A stretch of DNA of 58,637 nt from an uncultured Candidatus Binatia bacterium (GCA_963579235.1 CAUZFM010000001.1:1-58637), one strand, 5' to 3'. Shown: positions 132 to 53,749, counted from the first letter of the stretch. Notes: generated by a model not told the origin, from the sequence alone. Numbers and translations are program-made.

Positions 132-1770
132 ACGCTTCGATCCCGTCGAGCTCGAGCTCTTCAGCAACCGCCTGGTCGCGGTGGCCGAAGAAATGGGCAC
201 CGTGCTCTGCCAGGCCGGCTTCTCGCCCAACATCAAGGAGCGCCGCGATTTTTCCTGCGCAATTTTTGATGCAGCGGGCGGCATGGTGTCGCACGCTGCG
301 CACATACCGGTGCACCTCGGCTCGACACCCTTGTCGGTCAAGGCAGCCATCGAGGCCATGGCGGCTGACAGCGGGGACGTTCTCGCCGGCGACATCATGC
401 TGCTCAACGACCCCTACTCGGGCGGCACCCACCTGCCCGACCTCACCGTGGTGGCGCCGGTCTTTCTCGCCGGCCACCACAAGTCGAGCAGGGCCGGGAG
501 CGCTCGCCGACCCTTTGCCTGGCTGGCGGCCCGCGCCCATCACGCCGACATGGGTGGCCACGCACCCGGTTCGATGGCGCTGTGCACCGACATCCACCAG
601 GAGGGATTCCGCATACCGCCGGTTCACCTCTACCGGGGTGGCCGCGTGGTGCGCGAAACGATGGAGCTGTTCCTGGCCAACACCCGAGTGCCCGCCGAGA
701 GGATGGGCGACCTTGACGCCCAGGTCGCGGCCCTGCGCAGCGGTGATCAGCGCCTGTCCGAACTGGCGACTCGCTTCGGCCCGGCGCGTATCACTCGTGC
801 CATGAAGGAGCTGCAGGATTACTCGCACCGCCTGGTCGAGGCCATGATCAAGAAGCTCCCCATCGGCGAGTTCAGCGCCCGCGACTCACTCGATAACGAC
901 GGTATTGACCCGCAGCCACTGCGACTTTCGGTCACGCTACGGCGGCGGGGCAAACGCCTGGAGATCGACCTGCGAGACTGCTCCCCCCAATGCCGGGGCC
1001 CGCTCAACGCCAACCTCGCGGTGACCACGTCGGCGGTTTTTTATGTCGTGGCCTGTCTCGCCGGCAGCCGGGTACCGGCCAACCGCGGCATGATGGAGCC
1101 GGTAGACATACTCACCACACCGGGCACGCTCGTGGACTGCCGCTTTCCGGCAGCCGTGGCAGGAGGCAACGTCGAAACCTCGCAGCGTATAGTAGACCTG
1201 TTGCTGCGGGCCCTGGCCCGCGCGCTGCCCGGTCGTGTGCCGGCGGCGAGCTCGGGCACGATGAACAACCTGACGCTCGGAGGTTGGGACGTGCAACGTG
1301 ATCGCCACTTTGCCTACTACGAAACGGTGGCGGGTGGAGCCGGCGCCGGACCGTCAGGTCCGGGCTGCCACGCGCTGCACACCCACATGACCAACACGCT
1401 CAACACGCCCGTGGAACTGCTCGAGTCCTACTACCCCCTGAGGGTAATCCGTTACGGGCTGCGAAGGCGCTCCGGCGGGACCGGAAAGCACCGCGGCGGT
1501 GATGGAATAGATCGGGAAATAGAGGTCCTTGTGCCGGCCACGCTGACTCTGCTCGCCGACAGACGGCAAGAGGGCCCCTGGGGGCTGGCGGGCGGAAAGC
1601 CCGGTCTACCGGGCCGCGATACGGTGAGCAGCGGCGGCCGAACGAAAGCCATCGCCTCAAAAACCGAGCTGCAACTGGCCGCCGGCGACCGCGTCCGCGT
1701 GCAGACCCCCGGCGGCGGCGGCTGGGGGCGGATCGGACGGAAGGTAGCGGGCAAAAAAAAGCGGGGCTGA
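124..1770 (+). CDS. hyuB: Hydantoinase B / 5-oxoprolinase (HyuB family)
   Basis: 548 aa. N-terminus MAERFDPVELELFSNRLVAVAEEMG and internal NDPYSGGTHLPD are typical of HyuB / N-methylhydantoinase B. High GC3. Confidence 0.85.
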   Translation: MAERFDPVELELFSNRLVAVAEEMGTVLCQAGFSPNIKERRDFSCAIFDAAGGMVSHAAHIPVHLGSTPLSVKAAIEAMAADSGDVLAGDIMLLNDPYSGGTHLPDLTVVAPVFLAGHHKSSRAGSARRPFAWLAARAHHADMGGHAPGSMALCTDIHQEGFRIPPVHLYRGGRVVRETMELFLANTRVPAERMGDLDAQVAALRSGDQRLSELATRFGPARITRAMKELQDYSHRLVEAMIKKLPIGEFSARDSLDNDGIDPQPLRLSVTLRRRGKRLEIDLRDCSPQCRGPLNANLAVTTSAVFYVVACLAGSRVPANRGMMEPVDILTTPGTLVDCRFPAAVAGGNVETSQRIVDLLLRALARALPGRVPAASSGTMNNLTLGGWDVQRDRHFAYYETVAGGAGAGPSGPGCHALHTHMTNTLNTPVELLESYYPLRVIRYGLRRRSGGTGKHRGGDGIDREIEVLVPATLTLLADRRQEGPWGLAGGKPGLPGRDTVSSGGRTKAIASKTELQLAAGDRVRVQTPGGGGWGRIGRKVAGKKKRG

Positions 1771-1820: not shown

Positions 1821-2294
1821 TCAGGCCGCTGCTTTACGGCGTGACCCCTTCTCGAGGGAGTCAATCCTGCGCTCAATGGCGGTGAGCCGGCGCTTGACCG
1901 AATCAACATCGCCGCGCACGGGCAGCTTGAGCCACTTGGCCAGGCGCGTGGCCAGCTTGCCGGCTTCCTTCTGAGCACTGGAAGTCAGCTCACGGCGACG
2001 GCCGTTGGTCTCTTTGCGCAGCCCGGTGACCCTCTTGTCGAGCTGGGTCCTGACGTCGTCCAGGCGCTCTTCGATCTGCTCGCGCAGTTCGTCGACGCGA
2101 CCGTTGAGGTCCTCGCGAACTTCGCCGATACTGTCGATCACCTTGTCGACCTGGTCCTGCTGCTGCTCGGTGAGCATGGACACCGCGCGACGTCCAAAAC
2201 GCTCCGCGGCCCCTTCGACCTCACCACGAACCCTGTCCACAGTGTTGGTCACGTTACCGAAAAGCGGCGTGGGTTGCTTCTTTGCTTTTGCCAT
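1821..2294 (-). CDS. Phasin-like (PHA granule-associated, PhaF/PhaI-type) coiled-coil protein
   Basis: 157 aa, highly charged and helical. C-terminal LPVRGDVDSVKRRLTAIERRIDSLEK resembles the conserved phasin C-terminal motif. GGAGGG lies upstream of the ATG. Confidence 0.5.
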   Translation of the reverse strand: MAKAKKQPTPLFGNVTNTVDRVRGEVEGAAERFGRRAVSMLTEQQQDQVDKVIDSIGEVREDLNGRVDELREQIEERLDDVRTQLDKRVTGLRKETNGRRRELTSSAQKEAGKLATRLAKWLKLPVRGDVDSVKRRLTAIERRIDSLEKGSRRKAAA

Positions 2295-2991: not shown

Positions 2992-3843
2992 CTAGGAACG
3001 GCGGCCAGTCGTGTCAACGGCGAGTTCCCTCGACCGCCTCGTGGCGGCCTTCACGGCCGAAGCAACGGTCTGGCTGAACCCCCCGCTGGCGAGAGCGGAG
3101 AGGCCGGCCAGGGTGGTGCCGCCCGGCGACGAAACCGCCTTGCGCAATTCGACGGGCCCCTGCCCGCTCTCAAGCAACATCCTGGCGGCGCCAGCCAGGG
3201 TGTGACAGGCCAGGTGCAAGGCGGTTTCCTGGTCGAGTCCGGCCGCCTTACCACCCCGGGCCAGCGCCTCGGCAAACAGGTAAACATAGGCCGGCCCACT
3301 ACCGCTCAAGCCGGTGACCGCATCCATCAGCTTCTCTTCTTCGACCACGAGCACTTCGCCAACGGCTTCGAACATGGCCCTGGCCACTGCGAGGTCTTTT
3401 CTCCGCGCAGTCGCCCCCGCACAAAGCACCGACATGCCGCTACCCAGCAGGCAGGGGGTGTTGGGCATGACCCGAATAGTGCGCGCGCGCGGCCCCAGGG
3501 CCTTCTCCATGCGCGACAGGCGTACACCGGCCGCGATAGAGATAACCAGCTTGCCGCGCCCGAGCAGCGGCGACAGGCCCGACAGAACCTCGTCCATGAC
3601 CTGTGGTTTTACCGCGAGCACCACCGTCCGGGCGGCCTCGGCAAGCTGCGCGAGATCAGCCGTAACCCTGACTCCGAAGCGCCGCTTGAGCACGCGGCGG
3701 CGGGCCGCGAGGGGCTCGCAGACGACTATTGTCTCTGGTGAAACGCCACCGCCGTCATCGCCCGGCTCCAGCAAGCCCTTGAGCAACGCGGCAGCCATGT
3801 TGCCCCCACCAACAAAACCGACAACCGGCGCCTGCTTGCTCAC
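2992..3843 (-). CDS. proC: Pyrroline-5-carboxylate reductase
   Basis: 283 aa with N-terminal Rossmann motif VGFVGGGNMAAALLKGLL and C-terminal SPGGTTLAGL. Confidence 0.9.
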   Translation of the reverse strand: MSKQAPVVGFVGGGNMAAALLKGLLEPGDDGGGVSPETIVVCEPLAARRRVLKRRFGVRVTADLAQLAEAARTVVLAVKPQVMDEVLSGLSPLLGRGKLVISIAAGVRLSRMEKALGPRARTIRVMPNTPCLLGSGMSVLCAGATARRKDLAVARAMFEAVGEVLVVEEEKLMDAVTGLSGSGPAYVYLFAEALARGGKAAGLDQETALHLACHTLAGAARMLLESGQGPVELRKAVSSPGGTTLAGLSALASGGFSQTVASAVKAATRRSRELAVDTTGRRS

Positions 3844-30576: not shown

Positions 30577-32625
30577 ATGACGAGCGACACCACCGCATCC
30601 ACAAAAATTGAACTCTTTCTCAAGCCCAAGGCTGTCTCATCGAGAAAGCTGGCGCGCGACGCCGAGGGCCGCCTGCTGCTGGCAGAGGAAAGCGCCATTG
30701 ACCGCGACCGGACCCGCAACGCCGGCGTCACCATAGCCGAACTCGGCCGGCGCGTGCGCGTATTCAACTCCGACATGACCAAGCAGATGGCCTCTTACCT
30801 CGTGCCCGCCGAGCTCACCGAGTTCTCCGATGGTGCAGCCGATCTCTCGGGCGTGACCAAGACGCAGATCGGCCGCCTGCTATGGCTCGACGGCCTCTAC
30901 ATCCGCCACAACCCCGGCCTGCGCGAAGTCGGCATCAATGACCGCGGCGATGTGATCCTGCGCCTTGACCTCGAGACAGCCGAGGACCCGACCATCGGTC
31001 CGCTGATGAGCTCTTACAACACTACCCAGTCAACGCTCTCGTCGCGCCTGGTGGCGCGCATAGACAAGAAGAGCCACGACCGCGACGTGAAAGAAGCGCG
31101 GGCCTGGCTCGAGGCCATGAACGTGCTGACCGGCGGCAAGACCCTGCGCGCCCGTTTCTTCAGCGGCGGCGTGCAGGCCGAGCATCGCGGCAACGTGCCG
31201 CAGCTCTACCGCACCACGCAGGTAAACTTTTTTCAGCTCAACGACCCGGTCAACCTCGAACTCGCCGAGGTACTTGAGCAGCGCTTCGAGGGGTTGGACC
31301 GCCCAGTGCCCATAGTGCGCACCATTACCGTGGTAGGCATCCCGCCCAACGAGCGCGCCTACAAGGAGTTCGTCAGCCAGCTCAAGGAGAAGGACGAGAA
31401 CCCCATCAAGCTGGGGCTGCCGACGAGGCTGCGAGACTCGCAGTTCTTCGACACCTCGACCAAGTCTATTGCTCCCTCGTGCTTTTTCTACGCCTGCAAG
31501 CTCGACGACATAGGCGATTCGGTTGTCACAATCGCCATAAACACTGATTATCACGGCGAAATTAAATCCCGTGGCATTCACTCCGGCACCGCCGCGGTGA
31601 TGTCGGTGGCCGAGGTCATCGGCGCCCACGCGTCGAGCGCAATACTGTCGAGCAGCGGCAACTGCACGGTGTTCATGGGTGGCGACGGCTCGGGCAAAAG
31701 CCGCGCAGCCACCTTCTGGACAGAGCGCAACATCGACACCCGGCGCAACGAGCTCAAGCGTCGCTACTCCCTGACCTCGGACGAAACCAAGGCTACCGAG
31801 ACCATGAAGAGCGTGGGCTACCTGGCCCAGGACGACTGGATCAACCTCGTGCCGGCCGGACAGAACAAGGACGGCAGCGGCAACTGGGACACCTGGCCAA
31901 CCGAAAGGTTCTTCTACCTTCGCACGCGTGGCCTGCTGAGCCGCGATCTGGTGTTGTCTGAAAACGAAGCCGTAATCGAAAACCCCATGGCCGACTACGG
32001 CGCCGACGGACGCCGCGAAGTGCTGGGCCAGTGCACCCACGATTACCCGCACGAGCGTCTCTTCTACGACCCCGACTGGGACATTTTTTACTGCGACCGC
32101 GACGTCCATAAGCTCGGCCTCATAATGTTGCTCGAGGACGACCCCGACCTCGACTTCGTGATCCGCAGGCTCAGGCCCACCCAGGCTCTCGATTTCATAA
32201 TGAAGGGCCGCGCGGCGGATGGCAGTTTTCAACCCTTCTACAACGACAACTGCGACGTCTCCTCCTTGCTCATCGGCCAGGGCGTGACCGGCGACCGCCT
32301 GCTCGACGCGCTTAAGGCGGCGCGCAAGGGTGACGTGGCGGCGCTGATGAACGGTGACGAAGCGCTGGGAGCCTTCATACTCGACAGGGTCGAGCGCTTG
32401 GTCCTGCTCTACAAGCACCTGCTCACCGACATCCCGGTGTACGTTCTCAACGCGGCCGAGGCGGGGCCCGACCTCCTCCAGGACATGGCTTGGTACTGTT
32501 CGGAGAACCCTGATTCTCTCAAGCCCGGCCGCGAGAAAACTGTTGTCCAAGCGGTGAGCCTGATGGAAAAAGAGTTTGCCGTGACCTACGACGACAACGG
32601 GCTCTGGAGCCACCGCGGCAAATAA
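30577..32625 (+). CDS. Uncharacterised 682-aa protein with a divergent PEP-carboxykinase(ATP)/HprK-like P-loop core
   Basis: Colinear motifs YHGEIKS, GAHASSA, FMGGDGSGKS, YLAQDDW, RFFYLRT and VIENP parallel PckA YGGEMKK, SMHCSAN, FFGLSGTGKT, LIGDDEHGW, GGCYAKT and LLENV. The ~320-aa N-terminal region is unassigned. Confidence 0.65.
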   Translation: MTSDTTASTKIELFLKPKAVSSRKLARDAEGRLLLAEESAIDRDRTRNAGVTIAELGRRVRVFNSDMTKQMASYLVPAELTEFSDGAADLSGVTKTQIGRLLWLDGLYIRHNPGLREVGINDRGDVILRLDLETAEDPTIGPLMSSYNTTQSTLSSRLVARIDKKSHDRDVKEARAWLEAMNVLTGGKTLRARFFSGGVQAEHRGNVPQLYRTTQVNFFQLNDPVNLELAEVLEQRFEGLDRPVPIVRTITVVGIPPNERAYKEFVSQLKEKDENPIKLGLPTRLRDSQFFDTSTKSIAPSCFFYACKLDDIGDSVVTIAINTDYHGEIKSRGIHSGTAAVMSVAEVIGAHASSAILSSSGNCTVFMGGDGSGKSRAATFWTERNIDTRRNELKRRYSLTSDETKATETMKSVGYLAQDDWINLVPAGQNKDGSGNWDTWPTERFFYLRTRGLLSRDLVLSENEAVIENPMADYGADGRREVLGQCTHDYPHERLFYDPDWDIFYCDRDVHKLGLIMLLEDDPDLDFVIRRLRPTQALDFIMKGRAADGSFQPFYNDNCDVSSLLIGQGVTGDRLLDALKAARKGDVAALMNGDEALGAFILDRVERLVLLYKHLLTDIPVYVLNAAEAGPDLLQDMAWYCSENPDSLKPGREKTVVQAVSLMEKEFAVTYDDNGLWSHRGK

Positions 32626-32647: not shown

Positions 32648-32688
32648 GGGAAGCGAGGGGGAAGCGTCAGGCCTCGCCCTCGCTTCCC
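32648..32688. terminator. 12-bp perfect inverted repeat between convergent genes
   Basis: GGGAAGCGAGGG-N17-CCCTCGCTTCCC. The 3' arm overlaps the last codons of the minus-strand UPF0104 gene. There is no T-run. Confidence 0.35.
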
Positions 32689-33641
32689 CTGAGCGCCGGC
32701 ATGCCGGAATCATCGGCGAGAAACACCAGCCCGCCCACCGCTGACGAGGCCAGCAGCACGATCAGCCACAACAGCCCCAGCGCTATGCCCAGCTCGGACG
32801 ATACCCCGGCGTGGACAATAAACCACACGTACCCGCCCTCCCTTATTCCCAGGCCGGCCAAGCTCACCGGCAGGGCTGACAATATTGTCACCAGTGGGTG
32901 AAAGACGAAGTAATAAGCCAGCGGCAGGTCCAGGCCCAGGCCCGTGCCCAGCAAGTAAAGCGTAACTACCTGCAGGCTGTGAAAGGCCAGGGACACCCAT
33001 GCCGCCTGTAACAACAGCCCGCGGTCGAACCAGAACGGGGCGAGGTCGTCCTCGAGCAAGCGCCGTATTCGATTCGTATCGCCCAGCAATCGTCGCGCGA
33101 TCATGGGAATCAGCCACCAGCCCACCAGCATGGCCAGGCCCAGGGCCCAGGTGAACCAGACCAACAACGGCGGCAGACTGAAACGGCCCCACACGCCAAT
33201 GGCCACCACCACCACCACTAGCAGCATGGCCAGTCCTGACAGGCGGTCGAACAACACAGTGTTGAGGGCCACCGCGCGCCGGCCGTCGGTACGGCCAAGA
33301 TAGAGTGCGCGCACAACGTCGCCGCCCATGGTGCTTGGGCCGAACAGGTTGAAGAACATGCCGATGAAATAAAAACGGGTAACGGCGCCCAGCCCGGCGT
33401 GAAAACCTACGCGTTCCGATATCATATGCCAGCGCCAGGCGGTCATGAACTGGCCGGACAGGTAGAGCAGCACCGCTCCGACCACGACCAGCGGATCGAC
33501 CTGTAGAAGTGCAGCCGCCAGCACCCCGGGATCGCTCACCTGCCGATAGACCAGGTAGCCAGCCAGCAGCGATACGACAAACTTGAGTGGTGTTCCCCAG
33601 ACCATTGTCCTGCCCATAGTAGTGTCCCCCAAAGCGCTCAT
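32667..33641 (-). CDS. Flippase-like membrane protein (UPF0104 / LPG_synthase_TM family)
   Basis: 324 aa, polytopic, with RWHMI...FFNLFGPSTMGGDVVRALYL typical of UPF0104. Confidence 0.8.
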   Translation of the reverse strand: MSALGDTTMGRTMVWGTPLKFVVSLLAGYLVYRQVSDPGVLAAALLQVDPLVVVGAVLLYLSGQFMTAWRWHMISERVGFHAGLGAVTRFYFIGMFFNLFGPSTMGGDVVRALYLGRTDGRRAVALNTVLFDRLSGLAMLLVVVVVAIGVWGRFSLPPLLVWFTWALGLAMLVGWWLIPMIARRLLGDTNRIRRLLEDDLAPFWFDRGLLLQAAWVSLAFHSLQVVTLYLLGTGLGLDLPLAYYFVFHPLVTILSALPVSLAGLGIREGGYVWFIVHAGVSSELGIALGLLWLIVLLASSAVGGLVFLADDSGMPALRGSEGEA

Positions 33642-33721
33642 CTCCCCATCTGGATACCAGTCTGTGGCCCTGCCCTCAATGCCCCCAGCTGGTCACCGAG
33701 CCAAAAAATCTGCAGCCCACC

Positions 33722-33750
33722 TTGACAGGCGAGGCCTGCACCGGAAGAAT
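33722..33750 (+). promoter_or_regulatory. Candidate promoter of the DsbA-like gene
   Basis: TTGACA-N17-AAGAAT. The TTG of the -35 box is what the ORF track used as an alternative start codon. Confidence 0.4.
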
Positions 33751-33787
33751 AGCTCTTTACAATCAGCTCCAAGGAGGATGCACCCCA

Positions 33788-34546
33788 ATGGGATCGAAGG
33801 CACGTTACGCCTCGGCCATCGTTGCTATCCTTGCCCTTTACGTGGCTTCCTGCGTTGACCCGCAGGAAGTTACCGACATAAAGGCCAAGGTCGACGAGGT
33901 TCAGGCACAACAAAAAGACATGATAGGAAAACTGGCAGGCCTGGAGGCCGGTCAGAAAAAAATACTGGACAAGGGTCCGGCCGCTGCAGCGCGACCGTCC
34001 AAGCCCAAGGACGACCCCAACAAGGTCTACCCCGTAAAGAAGGGTAACTCGTTCTGGAAAGGCGCCGCGAACCCGACCGTTACGGTGGTCGAGTTCTCGG
34101 ACTTTCAATGACCATTCTGTGCACAAACCACCAGTCTGGTGGATCAGATAGTCAAGGAATTCCCCAACGACGTACAGTTTGTCTTCAAGAACTACCCCCT
34201 GCCGTTTCATAAGCAGGCCATGCCTGCCGCGAAGGCTGCTGTTGCAGCCGGCAACCAAGGCAAGTTCTGGGAGATGCACGACAAGATCTTCGAAAACTAC
34301 CGTGCCCTGAACGCGGATTTCTACGCCAAGGCCGCCGGCGAAATCGACGGATTGGACGTTGAGAAGTTCAAGGCCGACATGGACTCGCCCAAGACCCAGG
34401 CGCTGATAGTCGAAGAGATGAAAGAGGCCGGCACCGTCGGTGTACGGGGTACTCCCACTTTCTTCATCAACGGCAAGAAGCCCACGGGCCGTTCCTTTGA
34501 ACAGTGGAAGAGCATCATCGCCGAGGAGATCAAGAATAAGGGCTGA
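33788..34546 (+). CDS. DsbA-family thiol:disulfide oxidoreductase lipoprotein, predicted selenoprotein (Sec at TGA 34109..34111, motif U-P-F-C)
   Basis: Track ORFs 33722..34111 and 34139..34546 share one frame. Read-through gives VVEFSDFQ[TGA]PFCAQ...NYPLPFHKQAMPAA...GKFWEMHDKIF...GVRGTPTFFINGK. AAGGAGGA SD lies before ATG 33788, with a lipoprotein signal ILALYVASC, a hairpin after the TGA and a strong terminator. Confidence 0.85.
34116..34148 (+). promoter_or_regulatory. Candidate bacterial SECIS hairpin
   Basis: Lower stem UCUG/CAGA, upper stem CCACCA/UGGUGG, apical loop GUC (or a 5-bp stem with loop AGUCU). The apical loop starts 23 nt after the UGA and contains G-U. Confidence 0.5.
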
Positions 34547-34584
34547 CCTGGAATCTGCCAGAAAGCCCGCTGCGAAAGTGGCAA

Positions 34585-34618
34585 GGCCGGTTCCCTCACG
34601 GGAGCCGGCCTTTTTTTT
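34585..34618 (+). terminator. Rho-independent terminator after the DsbA-like gene
   Basis: GGCCGGTTCCC-TCAC-GGGAGCCGGCC followed by T8. Confidence 0.85.
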
Positions 34619-34686
34619 GACCGCGTTTCGCGCCACGACCTACCGTCCCGATCGTTGTCCGGATGTCACTCTCAAGCCCGGGCGTA

Positions 34687-35790
34687 TCAGGCCTGGCCGC
34701 TGTCGGCCGTCACGACCACGGGCTCGCCGTCCACCAGCACCCACTCGGGCCGGTAACCCTTGGGGCGAACCCAGAGAAAGAACGCGCCCGTCAGGGTCAG
34801 GGCCTCGGCCGCCCAGAAGCCCAGCGCGGCAGATATTATGGCCTGCGAAGTGCCCATTTTTTCGCCCAGCAGGTAGGTCTGCGCGATTTCACGGATGCCT
34901 TCGCCGGCTATGGTAAACGGCGATATCACGGTAGCAAAAATCTGGATAGACGAGGCAAAGGTCACCTCCCAGAAGCTCGCACCCACGGCACCTACCGCCA
35001 GCGCCGTAAAAAAGTACATCACCGCCGTCGTGAAGTGCACGATCCAGCTCTGAACCGCCGCGTTGAGCAACAACATGCGCTTGTCGCTGTAAGCCGCCGC
35101 GGCTTTGGACACCCGCGTGACGAAACCTGCGATCTTGTCGCGTGCCGGGATGGGAAAGTTTTCTATCACCCACTGCACCAGGCTGGGCTTGAACAGCAGG
35201 GTGAAAAACAGCAGCAACACGGCCGACGCTATGGGTACCGTGAGCGCCGCAACGCGGAAAGCGTTGTCGCCGAAAATCGAAATGCCCCACGGCATTGCGA
35301 CGAGAAAGGTAAAGAAAATTCCGAGGATGCCGAGGACTTTTTCGATCACGGTCGCGGCCGTTACCTCGACAGTGCGATCGCTGAAACGAGCTGCGTCGTA
35401 GAGCTTGTAGCCGTCAAGACCAACGGTGGACGGCAGGAAGGTACCCAGGAAACGGCCGATGAGAAACGAGCCGAATATATGCTTGAAAGGGAAGATTATG
35501 CCCTGGCCCTTGAGCAGCAGCAGCCAGCGATACATGCTGGCAAGTATGCCTATGAACTTTATGCCGGCGGCCAGCGCCACGAACATCCAGAAGTCATCCA
35601 TGTTGATGTTGGGTATGAACTCGCGGATTGCGGTGAAGGTCGTAACGCTACGACCGTCGTCGGTGGTCACCTGGTGCGAGAGCAGCAGGTAAAAAGCGCC
35701 CACGGTTATGACGGCCTTCACTGCCGTGGACAGCCACGCCCGGAGCGTAGGATTCAAATTTGACCAAAATTGTTTCAATTTGTTTATCAT
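34687..35790 (-). CDS. Flippase-like membrane protein (UPF0104 / LPG_synthase_TM family), second copy
   Basis: Polytopic, with YRWLLLL...FLGTFLPSTVGLDGYKLYD. The start is taken at the internal ATG (MINKLKQF). The track ORF extends to 35829. Confidence 0.8.
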   Translation of the reverse strand: MINKLKQFWSNLNPTLRAWLSTAVKAVITVGAFYLLLSHQVTTDDGRSVTTFTAIREFIPNINMDDFWMFVALAAGIKFIGILASMYRWLLLLKGQGIIFPFKHIFGSFLIGRFLGTFLPSTVGLDGYKLYDAARFSDRTVEVTAATVIEKVLGILGIFFTFLVAMPWGISIFGDNAFRVAALTVPIASAVLLLFFTLLFKPSLVQWVIENFPIPARDKIAGFVTRVSKAAAAYSDKRMLLLNAAVQSWIVHFTTAVMYFFTALAVGAVGASFWEVTFASSIQIFATVISPFTIAGEGIREIAQTYLLGEKMGTSQAIISAALGFWAAEALTLTGAFFLWVRPKGYRPEWVLVDGEPVVVTADSGQA

Positions 35791-35966
35791 TGTCGCTTTA
35801 CCCTTGTCTGCCTGACCGTGACTCGCCATGCAGGCAGCCAGCGTAAATTATAGGACAGTCGTGCAGCCGCTACCGTTTTTTTGGCCGGCGGCTTCCTCCA
35901 CCTGGCCCCGGGGCCGGTCTCGCTGACTTCAACAGCCTAATGATACCTGATAAGTCAGATGACGAC

Positions 35967-37214
35967 ATGAGCAGGCAATCAAAATCAAACTCTTGTGCTA
36001 AGTGCGGAGCCAGCCTCTCCTCGAGGCAGGCCTGGTGCGGCGACTGCGGCACCCCGCGACGTGACAAGCCCCGTGAAATCAGGGCAAACCCGCTTGCATT
36101 GGCGGTTTTTGGCCTGCTGTTTGGCCTGGGCGGCCTGGGCGTTTACCGGCTCGAAGCCCCCCCTCCCTCCCAGCAGCGTGCGGTATCGGGTGCACCCGGC
36201 GCTACCGGGGCGACGGCTTCAGCCCCCGCGCTCGACCTCGCCCCGGCCGACCACCCGATGGTGAAACTGCCCGAAGAAGTAACGCGCGTGCTCGATAGGC
36301 TTTCGGAGGCAGCCGAGGCCAGCCCCGACGACCTCGAGTCCTGGTTGATATTGTCCCGCGCGCGCTACCGCGCAGGCCTGCTCGATCCGTCTTACGTCGA
36401 AAAGGCCCGGCTGGCCCTGGACCACGTGCTCGAGCTGGACGCTGACTCGGCCGAAGCCATCCGCATGTACGGCAACCTGGAGTACAACGCCCGGCAGTTC
36501 GCGCGCGCCGAAGAACTCTTCAATCGTTACCTCCAGATCGACCCCGACGACGCGGCCGTGCGCACCGACCTCGGTTCGTCGCTGCTGTTCCAGGAACGAC
36601 GCGAAGAGGCGCGCGACACCTACCGCGAGGTCACCGTGAAAACACCGGGCTTCATGCAGGCCTGGTTCAACCTCGGCCTGGTGCAGAACGGCATGGGCGA
36701 CCGCGAGGGCGCGATGGCGAGCCTGAAGAAGGCAGGGGCCATCGCCACCGACCCGGAACAGAAACGTCGTGTCGAGGCACTCGTGGCGTCGCTGGAGAGT
36801 CGACAGGCAGCCGGGCCCACACCGCGCGACCGCACGGGTGGCGGCGACGCTGCGGCAACGGCCGGCGGCAGTGACAAAGCCGAGAGTAATGCCACCAGCG
36901 ATTTCCAGCGTGGCGCCGACCGACTACTGCTCGACCACCGCATAGTGGGCCCGCGGGTGGTCGCCATCACCTGGAGTTCTGATTCGTTGGCCGAGGTGAA
37001 GCTGAATAATTTCCCCATGGACCAAATGCCACCGGTGGTACGCAATCTTTTCAAGTCACGCATCAACGAATCCCTGGCCTCACTGGCCGAAAAGAACTCC
37101 CTCAACGACGCGATCAACATAGCGCTGGTCGACAGCGAGAGCGGCCTCACCATGGACAAGTTGGACGGCGTCGAGTTGGTTGGCGCCTTCGACCAGCCAG
37201 AGGACCTGCCGTGA
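35967..37214 (+). CDS. Zinc-ribbon / single-TM / TPR protein (CcmI/NrfG-like TPR region) with an unassigned C-terminal domain
   Basis: CAKCG-X10-[25 protein letters not shown], and TPR-like repeats ([15 protein letters not shown]..., [50 protein letters not shown]). Start could be 35940 or 35967. Confidence 0.75.
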
Positions 37215-38039: not shown

Positions 38040-41000
38040 GTGAGCGACGAACGAAAGTGGTTGTCGAGCCGTCACCTGGCCGACGACAGTGAGGGCGAAG
38101 CCGCGCTCGAGACGGTGGCTTCACTCCCACCCACCGACCGTGAAAAACTGTTGGCCACCGGCGACCTGCTGGCGCTTCGCTCGGTCACTCTGGCGCACTC
38201 CTTCCTGGTCGCGGCTGCCGCGGTAGCCCGTGACTCTCCCGCGCGCCTCCTCGACTGGCTGGCCGACACCATCACCCTTCTCGGGCAGGACCTCAAGCAG
38301 CGCGACGTAGCGTCCGCGTGGTTCGAGGCCAGCCGTTTTCTCTACCGCGAAGGCTCGCCGGTCGAACCCGCGCAGTGGCTGACCTGCTGCGCCTCACTGC
38401 TGGATCGCTCGCGTCGACTGGGCAGCGACTTTGCCGAGGCGACCACGCCGGCGCTGGAAAGCGGCACGGTAAACCCCACCGCCCTGCTCGCCTGGCGCGA
38501 CGCTACCCTCGAGCTGCTCGTAGACGGCGGTTGGCGAGAGGAAATGGCCGGCCGAGCGCTGGTGGAAACGATGCCCGGCCTGCTGGACGTGCTCGCCCCG
38601 GGGTCGGTGGACCACTGGAGTCGCTGCGTGTCGGCCCGCCAACCCGGCCGCCGCAAGGCTCCCCCCTGGCCGCCGCGACTCGCCAATGAACTCGCCTGCC
38701 TCGAAGCCTCGGAGCAGGAGCGCTGTCTCAAGCTCTGCGCTGACCTGTCCGCAGGTGACGCTCTCGCGGCGCGCGAACTGGTAAGCGCATTGCCGGCAGC
38801 CCTGAAATCACTTACCCCAGACTGTCGCCGTGCACTGTTCGAAGCCGTCGAAGAAACGCTTAAGGCGGCAACAGCGGCCGACGGACTGGCCGACGCGCTG
38901 CGCCTGCTGTCGGCCACCTTGCACGACCTCGACCAGGAGGACGCCTTGTTCTTGTTGTCGCGCGCACCCGCAGTGGCACGCCTGCTGCCCGCGGCGCTGC
39001 CCACCTACCTCAGATCCATGCACCGGGCGCTTGACGAGGGTGGGCGCGAGGGCGTCGAATTGTGGCTCGAGCAAGCGGGCGAGCTGGCCGACCGCGGCCA
39101 GGCGGCACTACTCGCCCACCTGGCCATACACACCAGGACAGCCCACAAGCTGCTCGTCGAGCACAGCGCGAGCATCCAGTTCGAAGAGATAGAAGGCCTC
39201 ATGCAACGCTACCTGCGCATGATGTCGCGCCGACATTTTCAACTCGTTGCGTCGACCGGCACCTGGCTGAGACCGCCCTTGTCGCCGGGCGATGAAACAA
39301 GCCTGCGCCTTCCCGAAAAGGTGAGCCTCTTCTCGAGCAGCGAAGATAACCTGCTCATGTACAAGCTCACCGTTGCCCACGTGGCCGGCCGCTGGGAGTA
39401 CGGCAGTTTTGACTTCAACATCGATCACTTCAAGAGCCTGGGCTGGTCGCCGCCCACCCTTGCAGGTCGTGAAAACAAGCCGGCCGACGAGTCGACGGGC
39501 CTCGCGGCCCTGCTCGAGTCCTACCCCAACCCGCTGCTCGCACACGGCCTGTTTGTGTTGCTCGACGGGGCGAGAATAGACGCCTGCCTGAGCCGCGAGT
39601 TTCCCGGCCTGGCCATCGACATGCAACGGCTGGGCGCCCACTACGCCAATAACCCACCGCCGCAGGCGGCCGATCGCCCGGCCGACCTGCTGCTCGAAGC
39701 GCTGTTTCATCTCACCGTGGGCGGGTTTAAACGCGGAGACCTGGAGCCGCGACTGTCCCGCTCGGCCGCGACCCTGGCCGAACCGCTACGGCGACTCCGC
39801 CATCCCGAAGCGAGCGTGTATGACAGCGCGACGCTGTTTGCCGCCCTCTACCCATTGCTCGCCCTGGCCGACTCGAGGGCCGAGGACCCCGACGACCCAG
39901 ACAACTTCATCGAGCTGGGCGGGGCGACTATTCTCGACCCCGGCGACATGGGCGAGGACCCCGCTCGCCCCATGCCCGGCGCGGCGGGTGACGACAAGGC
40001 CAAGGCCGGCCCCGACGACGGTGAATCCCTGGACCTGGGTGAGCGCGAGCTGCAACTGTCCGATACCGACGGTGACGACGAGGCTCCCGGTACGGCACTG
40101 AGCACTGACGAAATCCGCCGCCTGCTCGAGCAAGCCGATTCTCTAAAGCTTTCCGAGTCGCACGGTAGCGAGCAACCGGGGCTGGGACTCTACATCACGG
40201 ACCTGCTGGGGAAGCTCCCCTCGGATTCGCTGCGCGAACTGCGTGCCATGATGAATCGCGGCGACACGGCCGCCGTGCGTGACTGGCTACGCGAACAGGT
40301 GCACACCGACAGTTATCTCTACGACGAGTGGGACTACCAGGTGTCGGACTACCGCCGCCAGTGGTGTAGCCTGCAGGAGACCAGCATCGAGGGCGACGGC
40401 GGCCACTACTATCTCGAGGTCATCGGCCGCTCGGGCGAGCTGCTCTCGCAGGTGCGGCAGGAATTCAATCGCATGAAACCCGAGCAGTACCGCAAGGTAC
40501 GCGGCATGGAAGACGGCCACGACTTCGACCTCAACGCCCTGGTCGACGCCCGGGCCGAGCTTAAGTCGCGTAGGTCGCCCACTGATCGCTTCTATATCTC
40601 CCGTCGCCGCGAAGAACGCGACGTGGCAACCTTGTTCCTGGTCGACATGAGTGCGTCTACCGATGAACCCCTGGCCGACAGCGAGGGCGAGCCACGCCTG
40701 GTCATAGACCTCATCAAGGAAACCCTGGTGGTGCTTTCCGAGGTGCTCGGCGACATCGGCGACTCCTGGGCCATCTACGGATTTTCGGGTAACGGCCGAC
40801 ACAACGTGGAGTACTACCAGGTCAAGTCTTTCGTCGAGACCATGGGGCCCATGGTGAAGGGTCGCATAGGCGCCATCCAGCCCCGTCGCTCAACGCGCAT
40901 GGGCACCGCGCTGAGACACTCGGCCGACAAGCTGGCCCGCGTGAGCGCGCGCTCCCGCCACCTGATACTTCTCAGCGACGGGTTTCCGCAGGACAGCGAC

Positions 41001-41225
41001 TACGGCGAAGACCGACGCTCAAACACCTACGGCATACGCGACACGGCCATGGCCCTGCAGGAGCTGGAGCGCTCGGGCGTGGGCAGCTTCTGCATAACCA
41101 TAGACCCCTCGGGACACGACTACCTGCGCGACATGTGCCCCGGCGCGCGCTACTCGGTCATAGACGACATAAGATCGCTGCCCGGCGAGCTGCCGCGCGT
41201 GTACCGCCGCGTTACCCGCGCGTGA
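38040..41225 (+). CDS. NorD/CbbO-like protein with C-terminal von Willebrand factor A domain (1061 aa)
   Basis: C-terminal ~200 aa carry MIDAS LFLVDMSASTD, AIYGFSGNGR, RSTRMGTALRH, LILLSDGFPQDSDY, FCITIDPSGHDYL and LPGELPRVYRRVT. The N-terminal ~800 aa are unassigned and Leu/Ala-rich. Confidence 0.8.
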   Translation: MSDERKWLSSRHLADDSEGEAALETVASLPPTDREKLLATGDLLALRSVTLAHSFLVAAAAVARDSPARLLDWLADTITLLGQDLKQRDVASAWFEASRFLYREGSPVEPAQWLTCCASLLDRSRRLGSDFAEATTPALESGTVNPTALLAWRDATLELLVDGGWREEMAGRALVETMPGLLDVLAPGSVDHWSRCVSARQPGRRKAPPWPPRLANELACLEASEQERCLKLCADLSAGDALAARELVSALPAALKSLTPDCRRALFEAVEETLKAATAADGLADALRLLSATLHDLDQEDALFLLSRAPAVARLLPAALPTYLRSMHRALDEGGREGVELWLEQAGELADRGQAALLAHLAIHTRTAHKLLVEHSASIQFEEIEGLMQRYLRMMSRRHFQLVASTGTWLRPPLSPGDETSLRLPEKVSLFSSSEDNLLMYKLTVAHVAGRWEYGSFDFNIDHFKSLGWSPPTLAGRENKPADESTGLAALLESYPNPLLAHGLFVLLDGARIDACLSREFPGLAIDMQRLGAHYANNPPPQAADRPADLLLEALFHLTVGGFKRGDLEPRLSRSAATLAEPLRRLRHPEASVYDSATLFAALYPLLALADSRAEDPDDPDNFIELGGATILDPGDMGEDPARPMPGAAGDDKAKAGPDDGESLDLGERELQLSDTDGDDEAPGTALSTDEIRRLLEQADSLKLSESHGSEQPGLGLYITDLLGKLPSDSLRELRAMMNRGDTAAVRDWLREQVHTDSYLYDEWDYQVSDYRRQWCSLQETSIEGDGGHYYLEVIGRSGELLSQVRQEFNRMKPEQYRKVRGMEDGHDFDLNALVDARAELKSRRSPTDRFYISRRREERDVATLFLVDMSASTDEPLADSEGEPRLVIDLIKETLVVLSEVLGDIGDSWAIYGFSGNGRHNVEYYQVKSFVETMGPMVKGRIGAIQPRRSTRMGTALRHSADKLARVSARSRHLILLSDGFPQDSDYGEDRRSNTYGIRDTAMALQELERSGVGSFCITIDPSGHDYLRDMCPGARYSVIDDIRSLPGELPRVYRRVTRA

Positions 41226-53275: not shown

Positions 53276-53749
53276 TCAACCGGGCTTGAAGTCGGATAAC
53301 TCCGGGGTGTCGAAGAGATAGGCGCAATCCCATTCGAGCCCTGCGGCGCTGACCATGAGTTCCATCTCCCGCCGGTACGCCTCGCGGCTGAAACCTTCGA
53401 TCGCCGACCCCAACGACTCTCCATCGAGCTGCAGCAGTACCGGCACCGAGGCCAGGCCCAGCTCGGTCGACAGCGGCCAGCCGGGGTTATCCAAGTACAC
53501 CGGCATGGTTATCTTGTTGTCGCGAACAAAGTCCTCGGTCTCCTCGAGGCTGTCCTGGGACACGGCCACGATGTCGATAATGCCTTCACCCCGGCGATAG
53601 ATCTGCTCGAGCAGGGGCAGGGCGACGCGGCAGGTGGGACAGCCGTCCTTGTAGAGCAGCAGCACCCTGCGCCCCTGCCCCGGTAGATCCGCCACCTCGT
53701 CGGATCCCAGCCTGGGCAGTTGTCTCGTTTGCAGCTCGGCCACGGACAA
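53276..53749 (-). CDS. Thioredoxin-fold (TlpA/redoxin-like) protein
   Basis: VLLLYKDGCPTCRVALPLL (CxxC). 157 aa. No signal peptide seen. Confidence 0.75.
   Translation of the reverse strand: MSVAELQTRQLPRLGSDEVADLPGQGRRVLLLYKDGCPTCRVALPLLEQIYRRGEGIIDIVAVSQDSLEETEDFVRDNKITMPVYLDNPGWPLSTELGLASVPVLLQLDGESLGSAIEGFSREAYRREMELMVSAAGLEWDCAYLFDTPELSDFKPG

Follow-up and report, generated by a model that had tools for sequence, protein, structure and literature searches.

A DsbA-family gene with one in-frame TGA

The gene analysed here lies at 33788..34546 on the plus strand of a 58,637-nucleotide stretch of DNA from an uncultured Candidatus Binatia bacterium (GCA_963579235.1 CAUZFM010000001.1:1-58637), and we refer to this whole stretch as the window. 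Translation reveals one open frame from the ATG at 33788 to the stop codon TGA at 34544..34546, the sole interruption of which is another TGA at 34109..34111. A previous sequence-only reading of the window had proposed that this internal TGA encodes selenocysteine (Sec) at the position of the first redox cysteine of a DsbA-like protein. It had placed the two open reading frames (ORFs) 33722..34111 and 34139..34546 in the same frame, which agrees with the mechanical ORF list, and had correctly described the gap between them as the TGA plus nine sense codons; its count of 145 codons after the TGA has to be corrected to the 144 that the translation contains. The evidence presented in the following makes it very probable that this is a genuine Sec-encoding gene, in which the UGA is decoded as Sec.

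We ran a Pfam search on the read-through product with a cysteine in place of the TGA, which matched PF13462 Thioredoxin_4 (E=3e-28, 99.5 bits, gathering cutoff 23.2) and PF01323 DSBA (E=2.5e-20, 73.5 bits, gathering cutoff 25.6). A protein search returned thousands of homologues, and when 16 full-length ones sharing 56-65% identity were aligned, the TGA column coincided with the invariant cysteine of the motif E[FW]SDFQ-C-PFC, which confirms the proposed placement of the TGA at the first redox cysteine. The AlphaFold2 (AF2) model has a mean predicted local distance difference test score (pLDDT) of 80, rising to 85-97 in the catalytic domain, and displays a signal helix at residues 6-22 and a DsbA fold whose helix alpha-1 starts right after U108-P109. 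If the UGA is read as Sec, the redox centre would therefore be U-P-F-C, its Sec nucleophile sitting at the N-terminal end of helix alpha-1. Residues Thr222-Pro223 form what we take, from general knowledge of DsbA-family structure, to be the cis-Pro loop of the thioredoxin fold. In Foldseek and phmmer searches, the catalytic domain comes closest to 3gyk, a thioredoxin-like oxidoreductase of Silicibacter, to Corynebacterium DsbA/TsdA and to Bacillus BdbD, the Foldseek matches 3gyk, 4pwo and BdbD 3eu3 having TM(target) scores of 0.59-0.83. Hence, the DsbA-family thioredoxin fold proposed beforehand stands, but the branch is nearer to BdbD/ScsC/Thioredoxin_4 than to classical E. coli DsbA.

The signal region consists of an n-region containing K/R, a hydrophobic core and the sequence V-A-S-C22; by eye, Tyr18 departs from the strict lipobox pattern of PROSITE PS51257. 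Since Cys22 is invariant and the best NCBIfam match of the protein is a '(seleno)lipoprotein' family, lipid anchoring at Cys22 is likely. Taken as one 252-residue polypeptide, the product is probably an exported, lipid-anchored thiol-disulfide oxidoreductase of the DsbA type. The coordinates of the gene and of the features belonging to it are compiled in Table 1.

Table 1. Coordinates of the gene, of the elements within it and of its flanking signals in the window
Feature	Position	Strand	Basis
Complete coding sequence, 252 codons including predicted Sec108	33788..34546	+	Own stop codon TGA 34544..34546; translation, Pfam, homologue alignment, AF2
In-frame TGA, predicted selenocysteine 108 (U-P-F-C)	34109..34111	+	Aligned with invariant Cys; six assemblies; nine divergent orthologues
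TGT, resolving Cys111 of the UxxC motif	34118..34120	+	C111 column invariant (homologue alignment)
SECIS-like hairpin CCACCA-GUC-UGGUGG	34128..34142	+	6-bp stem, loop 34134..34136; fold, orthologue conservation
Signal peptide ending in V-A-S-C; Cys22 (33851..33853) probable lipidation site	33788..33853	+	Cys22 invariant in 17 sequences
Long N-terminal helix (25-61), then Pro/Ala-rich linker (62-78), disordered in AF2	33860..33970	+	AF2
Thr222-Pro223, presumed cis-Pro loop	34451..34456	+	G221, T222, P223 invariant
Putative sigma-70-like promoter match TTGACA-N17-AAGAAT	33722..33750	+	Consensus scan, 10/12 positions
Shine-Dalgarno sequence AAGGAGGA	33771..33778	+	~10 nt 5' of ATG; read from sequence
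Intrinsic-terminator-like hairpin and T-run	34583..34619	+	13 bp (9 G-C), hairpin 34583..34612; consensus scan

Conservation of the TGA and of the hairpin downstream of it

Further contigs carrying the locus were found by exact-sequence look-up of a neighbouring gene of 380 amino acids, which occurs in many samples. Six assemblies made from different samples (ENA, JGI and Logan; L001-L006) all have the same TGA; one of them (L004) stems from a strain variant that has single-nucleotide polymorphisms elsewhere and keeps the TGA. In all six assemblies the gene is called as two pieces of 107 and 135 amino acids, and at 90% identity we obtained one cluster of 25 C-terminal fragments and one of 16 N-terminal fragments, almost all of which end at the same point and which sit in metagenome-assembled genomes (MAGs) labelled Candidatus Binatota, Deltaproteobacteria or Proteobacteria. 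At NCBI, the N-terminal piece is named 'hypothetical protein' and the C-terminal one 'thioredoxin domain-containing protein'. The expectation that gene callers miss or truncate the gene was thus justified: dozens of public assemblies and several MAGs at NCBI contain it, in every case broken into two fragments (e.g. MBC8294000.1 with MBC8293999.1, HIF64594.1 with HIF64595.1 and NQY91613.1 with NQY91614.1). A sequencing or assembly error at the TGA can be excluded, with a probability that we regard as negligible, because the codon is identical in six assemblies made from different samples and by different pipelines, the strain variant included, and because the same split recurs in the 25- and 16-member clusters, among them the NCBI MAGs.

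The exact split made by the gene callers would also be expected if the locus encoded two functional polypeptides, namely a lipoprotein of 107 amino acids and a cytoplasmic thioredoxin-like protein of 135 amino acids starting at GTG 34139. We consider this extremely improbable, as the C-terminal piece would be devoid of the first beta-strands, the UxxC motif and a signal peptide, and no Shine-Dalgarno sequence precedes GTG 34139. Moreover, the nine codons that lead from the TGA to the GTG show coding-sequence conservation, with P-F-C being invariant, and the Cys-containing orthologues, including the syntenic one in L129, are single proteins of 250 amino acids.

Orthologues were drawn from a scan of a genome collection with a degenerate pattern encoding S-D-F-Q-TGA-P-F-C. 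Nine full-length TGA orthologues are among the matches listed (L016, L040, L124, L118, L089, L130, L112, L103 and L125); they are 46-67% identical to the window gene, carry the TGA in the same column and share the layout of a signal peptide with Cys, a helix, a linker and a DsbA domain. Two genes truncated by their contig ends (L111 and L049) also fall within the clade of the window gene. The synteny of the locus is kept in the TGA relatives and in the Cys orthologue L129, which has a TGT in the TGA column, the shared neighbours being two LPG_synthase_TM genes, a gene of 682 amino acids, a TPR gene and an AAA_5/CbbQ gene. Against each of the nine orthologues synonymous sites are saturated (synonymous divergence dS > 1), and the ratio of nonsynonymous to synonymous divergence (dN/dS) amounts to 0.10-0.30 over the 144 codons after the TGA and to 0.14-0.38 before it. 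None of the nine TGA orthologues contains a further stop codon or a frameshift.

These data bear directly on the possibility that a nonsense mutation from TGC or TGT to TGA inactivated an ordinary Cys-containing DsbA and left a pseudogene. One base change would suffice for this, and the best 120 of the thousands of database homologues, when aligned, are all full-length Cys-forms. However, the TGA is common to nine orthologues at saturated synonymous divergence, and purifying selection after the TGA is at least as strong as before it; we therefore set the pseudogene explanation aside as very unlikely. The earlier argument that conservation past the TGA speaks against decay is supported by the same values, and the check for an obviously degraded gene in relatives, which had been suggested as a way to refute the Sec reading, returned intact reading frames in all nine orthologues. 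The pseudogene explanation also sits poorly with the ~117 TGA-forms of DsbA in many phyla and with the conservation of the hairpin and its AGT codon only alongside the TGA, both of which are described in the following.

The SDFQ-TGA-PFC scan gave at least 120 matches, compared to ~9 in our own estimate of chance matches. About 117 of the matches listed are DsbA-family genes in which homology runs 140-170 residues past the TGA, and they stem from Chloroflexota, Acidobacteriota, Myxococcota, 'Deltaproteobacteria', Planctomycetota, Verrucomicrobiia and Binatia. The scan thus suggests that SDFQ-U-PFC DsbA genes exist in well over a hundred species-level genomes and would therefore make up a large, under-annotated share of the bacterial selenoproteome. 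A protein-guided scan of metagenomes listed mostly Cys-forms of 40-50% identity, which served as control set and not as a source of orthologues. In a neighbour-joining tree, the Sec- and Cys-forms of the clade interleave, which fits the known frequent exchange between Sec and Cys.

Several of the collected genes encode more than one such domain. On the minus strand of the Myxococcota MAG H32-bin139_1 (L077), a single frame running from MNMSKGTAFLG... to ...ELKKKGS comprises four successive DsbA domains, each with the TGA of a U-P-[FY]-C motif (matches at 2209-2232, 2863-2886 and 3520-3543 in plus-strand coordinates, plus a fourth); its predicted product would contain four Sec residues, a number rarely seen in bacteria. 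Two Sec domains follow a CDCGCPHG domain in L008, L088 and L105, two Sec domains are combined with one Cys domain in L071, and two Sec residues are predicted in a three-domain protein of L116 (Chloroflexota).

Downstream of the TGA, the RNA can form a hairpin resembling a selenocysteine insertion sequence (SECIS), the stem-loop of which spans +20..+34 and presents G26 and U27 in its loop, counted from the U of the UGA. The bacterial SECIS (bSECIS) consensus attributed to Zhang and Gladyshev from 2005 is said to be a stem-loop ~16-37 nt from the UGA whose small apical loop contains a G (GU), and the window hairpin is a 3' stem-loop of this type. The chance that a randomly chosen position is followed by a SECIS-like hairpin in a loose definition is ~0.22; the strict form, which requires a 3-nt GUN loop on a stem of 6 bp or more, occurs only five times on the plus strand, which corresponds to a chance of ~0.002. 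In an alignment of the clade (12 sequences), 83% of the cells of the hairpin are paired compared to at most 52% in slid controls. The sequence-only reading had included a lower UCUG/CAGA stem in this element; the upper stem with its GU loop is conserved in the Sec-forms, but the lower stem is not conserved in the orthologues.

The serine codon in the loop is AGT in all 11 clade members that share the hairpin. This codon accounts for 5.8% of the serine codons in 16 window genes and occurs once in the gene under study. In the close Cys-forms that were inspected, including the syntenic L129, the hairpin is absent and the serine position is occupied by Pro, Ala or Gly.

Across the family, two recurrent hairpins are found 3' of the TGA, both with a GUY loop. 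The consensus in the clade of the window gene is xCC(R)CCA-GUY-UGGUSG. The second one, GAGGGUCG-GUC-CGACCCUC, is very uniform, comprises 19 nt, encodes the peptide RVGPTL and has its GU at 23/24. It recurs nearly identically at ~60 loci of L007-L126 belonging to Acidobacteriota, Myxococcota, Planctomycetota and Verrucomicrobiia (e.g. L033 4964, L053 1439 and L025 4690 in oriented coordinates). The codons AGG, GTC, GGT and CCG within RVGPTL are used in 52-59 of 59 Sec-forms, compared to 1-6 of 11 Cys-forms with the identical peptide, so that a constraint on synonymous sites appears to track the TGA. We further compared 122 Sec-forms with 128 Cys-forms, and stems of 5 bp or more that lie 16-37 nt from the codon and have a G among the first two bases of the loop were present in 79% of the Sec-forms and in 20% of the Cys-forms. 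The mean best stem measures 7.3 bp in Sec-forms and 5.3 bp in Cys-forms (p=2.6e-24, phylogeny not corrected for).

The SECIS of E. coli fdhF is a minimal stem-loop, GGUUGCAGGUCUGCACC, with G23 and U24 in its loop. Like this element, the window hairpin lies in the coding region a short distance 3' of the UGA and has a small apical loop with GU, and its closing context A-GUC-U resembles A-GGUC-U of fdhF. Unlike fdhF, its loop has 3 nt instead of 4 and a bulged U is not apparent. With GU at +23/24, the larger RVGPTL class of TGA-DsbA genes is in the same register as fdhF.

Decoding of the TGA, flanking signals and gene neighbourhood

Several observations weigh against the decoding of this UGA as Sec. 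Neither selA, selB, selD nor a tRNA-Sec gene was found in the window or ~8-9 kb past each end, a search that comprised the Pfam annotation of the called genes. Rfam 15 matches no family in the whole window at gathering score or in 34000..34300 at E <= 10, so that the region has no match to a curated SECIS covariance model. The folding energy of the hairpin region is unremarkable (z = -0.72), and covariation within the clade is thin, with pair 21-33 (CG in six and GC in three clade sequences) being the sole compensatory pair and 39 of 500 shuffles reaching the observed score. In addition, the GU at +26/27 is located one codon farther from the UGA than that of fdhF at +23/24. Finally, selenium at residue 108 is a prediction made from sequence. 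Since the folding energy is not significant, single-sequence folding was not used as evidence, and our case for a SECIS is hence built on the comparison with relatives.

ARAGORN detected no tRNA in the window, the loci collected gave no tblastn match to E. coli SelD and SelA, and a literature search combining Binatota and selenocysteine found nothing relevant. Among the 211 sequences collected, a single tRNA-Sec was detected by ARAGORN in L080 (Anaerolineae bacterium W379), where a tRNA-SeC with the anticodon tca at 2019..2114 lies ~1.2 kb from the TGA-DsbA match at 781..804 on the minus strand.

The missing sel machinery in the window with its ~8-9 kb flanks and the missing match to an Rfam SECIS family would be in accordance with a host that lacks or has lost the Sec machinery, in which the UGA would either be passed by a near-cognate tRNA inserting Trp or Cys or terminate translation to yield a lipoprotein of 107 residues. 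However, the hairpin with its GU loop tracks the TGA across the family, as predicted for SelB-dependent decoding, and Trp in place of the nucleophile would abolish the redox centre of a domain that is otherwise under strong conservation. A tRNA-Sec gene next to one of the TGA-DsbA loci (L080) also speaks for Sec, and the ~76 kb inspected are a small part of a multi-megabase genome. Passage or termination without Sec therefore appears quite unlikely to us. A genome-wide reassignment of UGA does not apply either, because UGA ends 15 of the 21 window genes, the gene under study being one of them.

Under the preferred reading, in which the UGA is decoded as Sec, SelB and Sec-tRNA(Sec) would bind the hairpin at 34128..34142 with GU in its 3-nt loop, as in the standard bacterial pathway, and SelB would deliver Sec at the UGA, which is situated 17-19 nt 5' of the stem. 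The protein would then be exported and acylated at Cys22, would probably oligomerise through helix 25-61 as in ScsC, and may carry out disulfide or selenenylsulfide exchange with periplasmic substrates. It may do so as an oxidase or as a ScsC-like isomerase or reductase.

Signals matching the promoter, Shine-Dalgarno sequence and terminator that had been ascribed to the gene are present around it (Table 1), the promoter and terminator being identified by consensus scan and the Shine-Dalgarno sequence by reading. The promoter-like site is the only one that the scan found within 33400..34800. The gene is spanned entirely by an antisense ORF of 332 amino acids (33638..34636, minus strand); it is most probably a shadow ORF such as GC-rich genomes produce, and all homology and family matches fall on the plus strand. 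The GC content is 0.571 in 34001..36000 compared to 0.61-0.67 over the rest of the window.

The gene is flanked by genes for LPG_synthase_TM (PF03706) membrane proteins at 32667..33641 and 34687..35829, both on the minus strand, and a functional link between them and the selenoprotein gene is possible. On the plus strand, 30577..32625 encodes a protein of 682 amino acids that has no Pfam match on record and is 56-64% identical at orthologous loci, and 38040..41225 encodes a conserved protein of 1061 amino acids, likewise with no Pfam match on record. No genes for DsbB, VKOR, DsbD or ScsB were found nearby in the gene annotation of the window and its surroundings. A scan of the window for other in-frame TGA selenoprotein candidates yielded none that was convincing; a gene for a small thioredoxin-like protein at 53276..53749 (minus strand) matches AhpC-TSA weakly, keeps its CPTC motif intact and is not interrupted by an in-frame TGA.

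Comparison with known selenoproteins and with ScsC

UxxC selenoproteins of the DsbA-like (COG2761) and DsbG-like (COG1651) types were predicted in 2005-2006 from Sargasso Sea data and genomes (PMC1088965, PMC1794560), and a review from 2026 describes both as 'predicted with high confidence' and ties the DsbG-like type to NCBIfam NF041057 (PMC13188914). The statement of the sequence-only reading that DsbA-like oxidoreductases with Sec in place of Cys are a known class is thus well founded in this literature. The picture of Sec decoding is left unchanged by the gene described here, the value of which lies mainly in annotation and in selenoproteome surveys: it adds a predicted exported and probably membrane-anchored Sec enzyme to a marine uncultured lineage (Binatota or 'Deltaproteobacteria' MAGs), and the pair of Sec and Cys orthologues at a conserved locus provides a handle on why Sec is kept or replaced.

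With regard to the curated families, the best NCBIfam match of the protein is NF041057, 'Rcas_1661 family thioredoxin-like (seleno)lipoprotein' (E=9e-28), in which residues 12-245 align with positions 2-245 of the 247 of the profile. Like the proteins of NF041057 and the DsbG-like type, the window protein combines a UxxC motif with predicted Sec in first place, a probable lipoprotein signal and a DsbA/COG1651-type domain, and unlike NF041057, it possesses a long N-terminal helix and a linker. At 97.4 bits, it falls far short of the curated cutoff of 190, and seven other TGA-forms tested against the model reach 85-158 bits, all below the cutoff as well. The window protein is therefore a homologue of NF041057 and not a member of its curated equivalog, which places it in a broader, uncurated set of relatives, and the curated (seleno)lipoprotein model does not capture the window gene.

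We compared the protein to the DsbA-like 'form 1', the published example of which is NIP15863.1, via family profiles. Shared with this form are the match to PF01323, the UxxC motif, the occurrence in marine metagenomes and a stem-loop after the UGA with G in the apical loop. Unlike 'form 1' (COG2761, FrnE-like, 2005), the window protein fits PF13462, the COG1651 type, better.

In its overall architecture, the protein resembles ScsC of Caulobacter crescentus and Proteus mirabilis, in which a flexible linker likewise joins a helix at the N-terminus to a DsbA-like catalytic domain. ScsC, named as suppressor of copper sensitivity C, is a trimeric DsbA-like disulfide isomerase/reductase. Foldseek aligns 232-251 columns, i.e. 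nearly the whole model, with the ScsC structures 7rgv, 5idr and 4xvw, and sequence matches to the ScsC group have E values of 4e-13 to 1e-8 at an identity of only 15-22%. A tentative proposal, which we put forward as a possibility and hold with less than even confidence, is that the window gene belongs to a distinct, uncurated clade of selenolipoproteins, ScsC-like in having a coiled-coil helix, a linker and a DsbA domain but with Sec as nucleophile, with a SECIS register of its own (GU at +26/27), mis-annotated as two genes and found in Binatota-type hosts of the oxic deep ocean, in which Sec would be ancestral and would have been replaced repeatedly by Cys at a syntenic locus. If so, the clade would represent a periplasmic Se-dependent disulfide isomerase or an enzyme of copper and oxidant defence that is new to the curated selenoprotein families. 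The window protein differs from ScsC itself in that ScsC uses Cys where the window protein is predicted to use Sec, and no ScsB/DsbD-like partner gene is present in the window.

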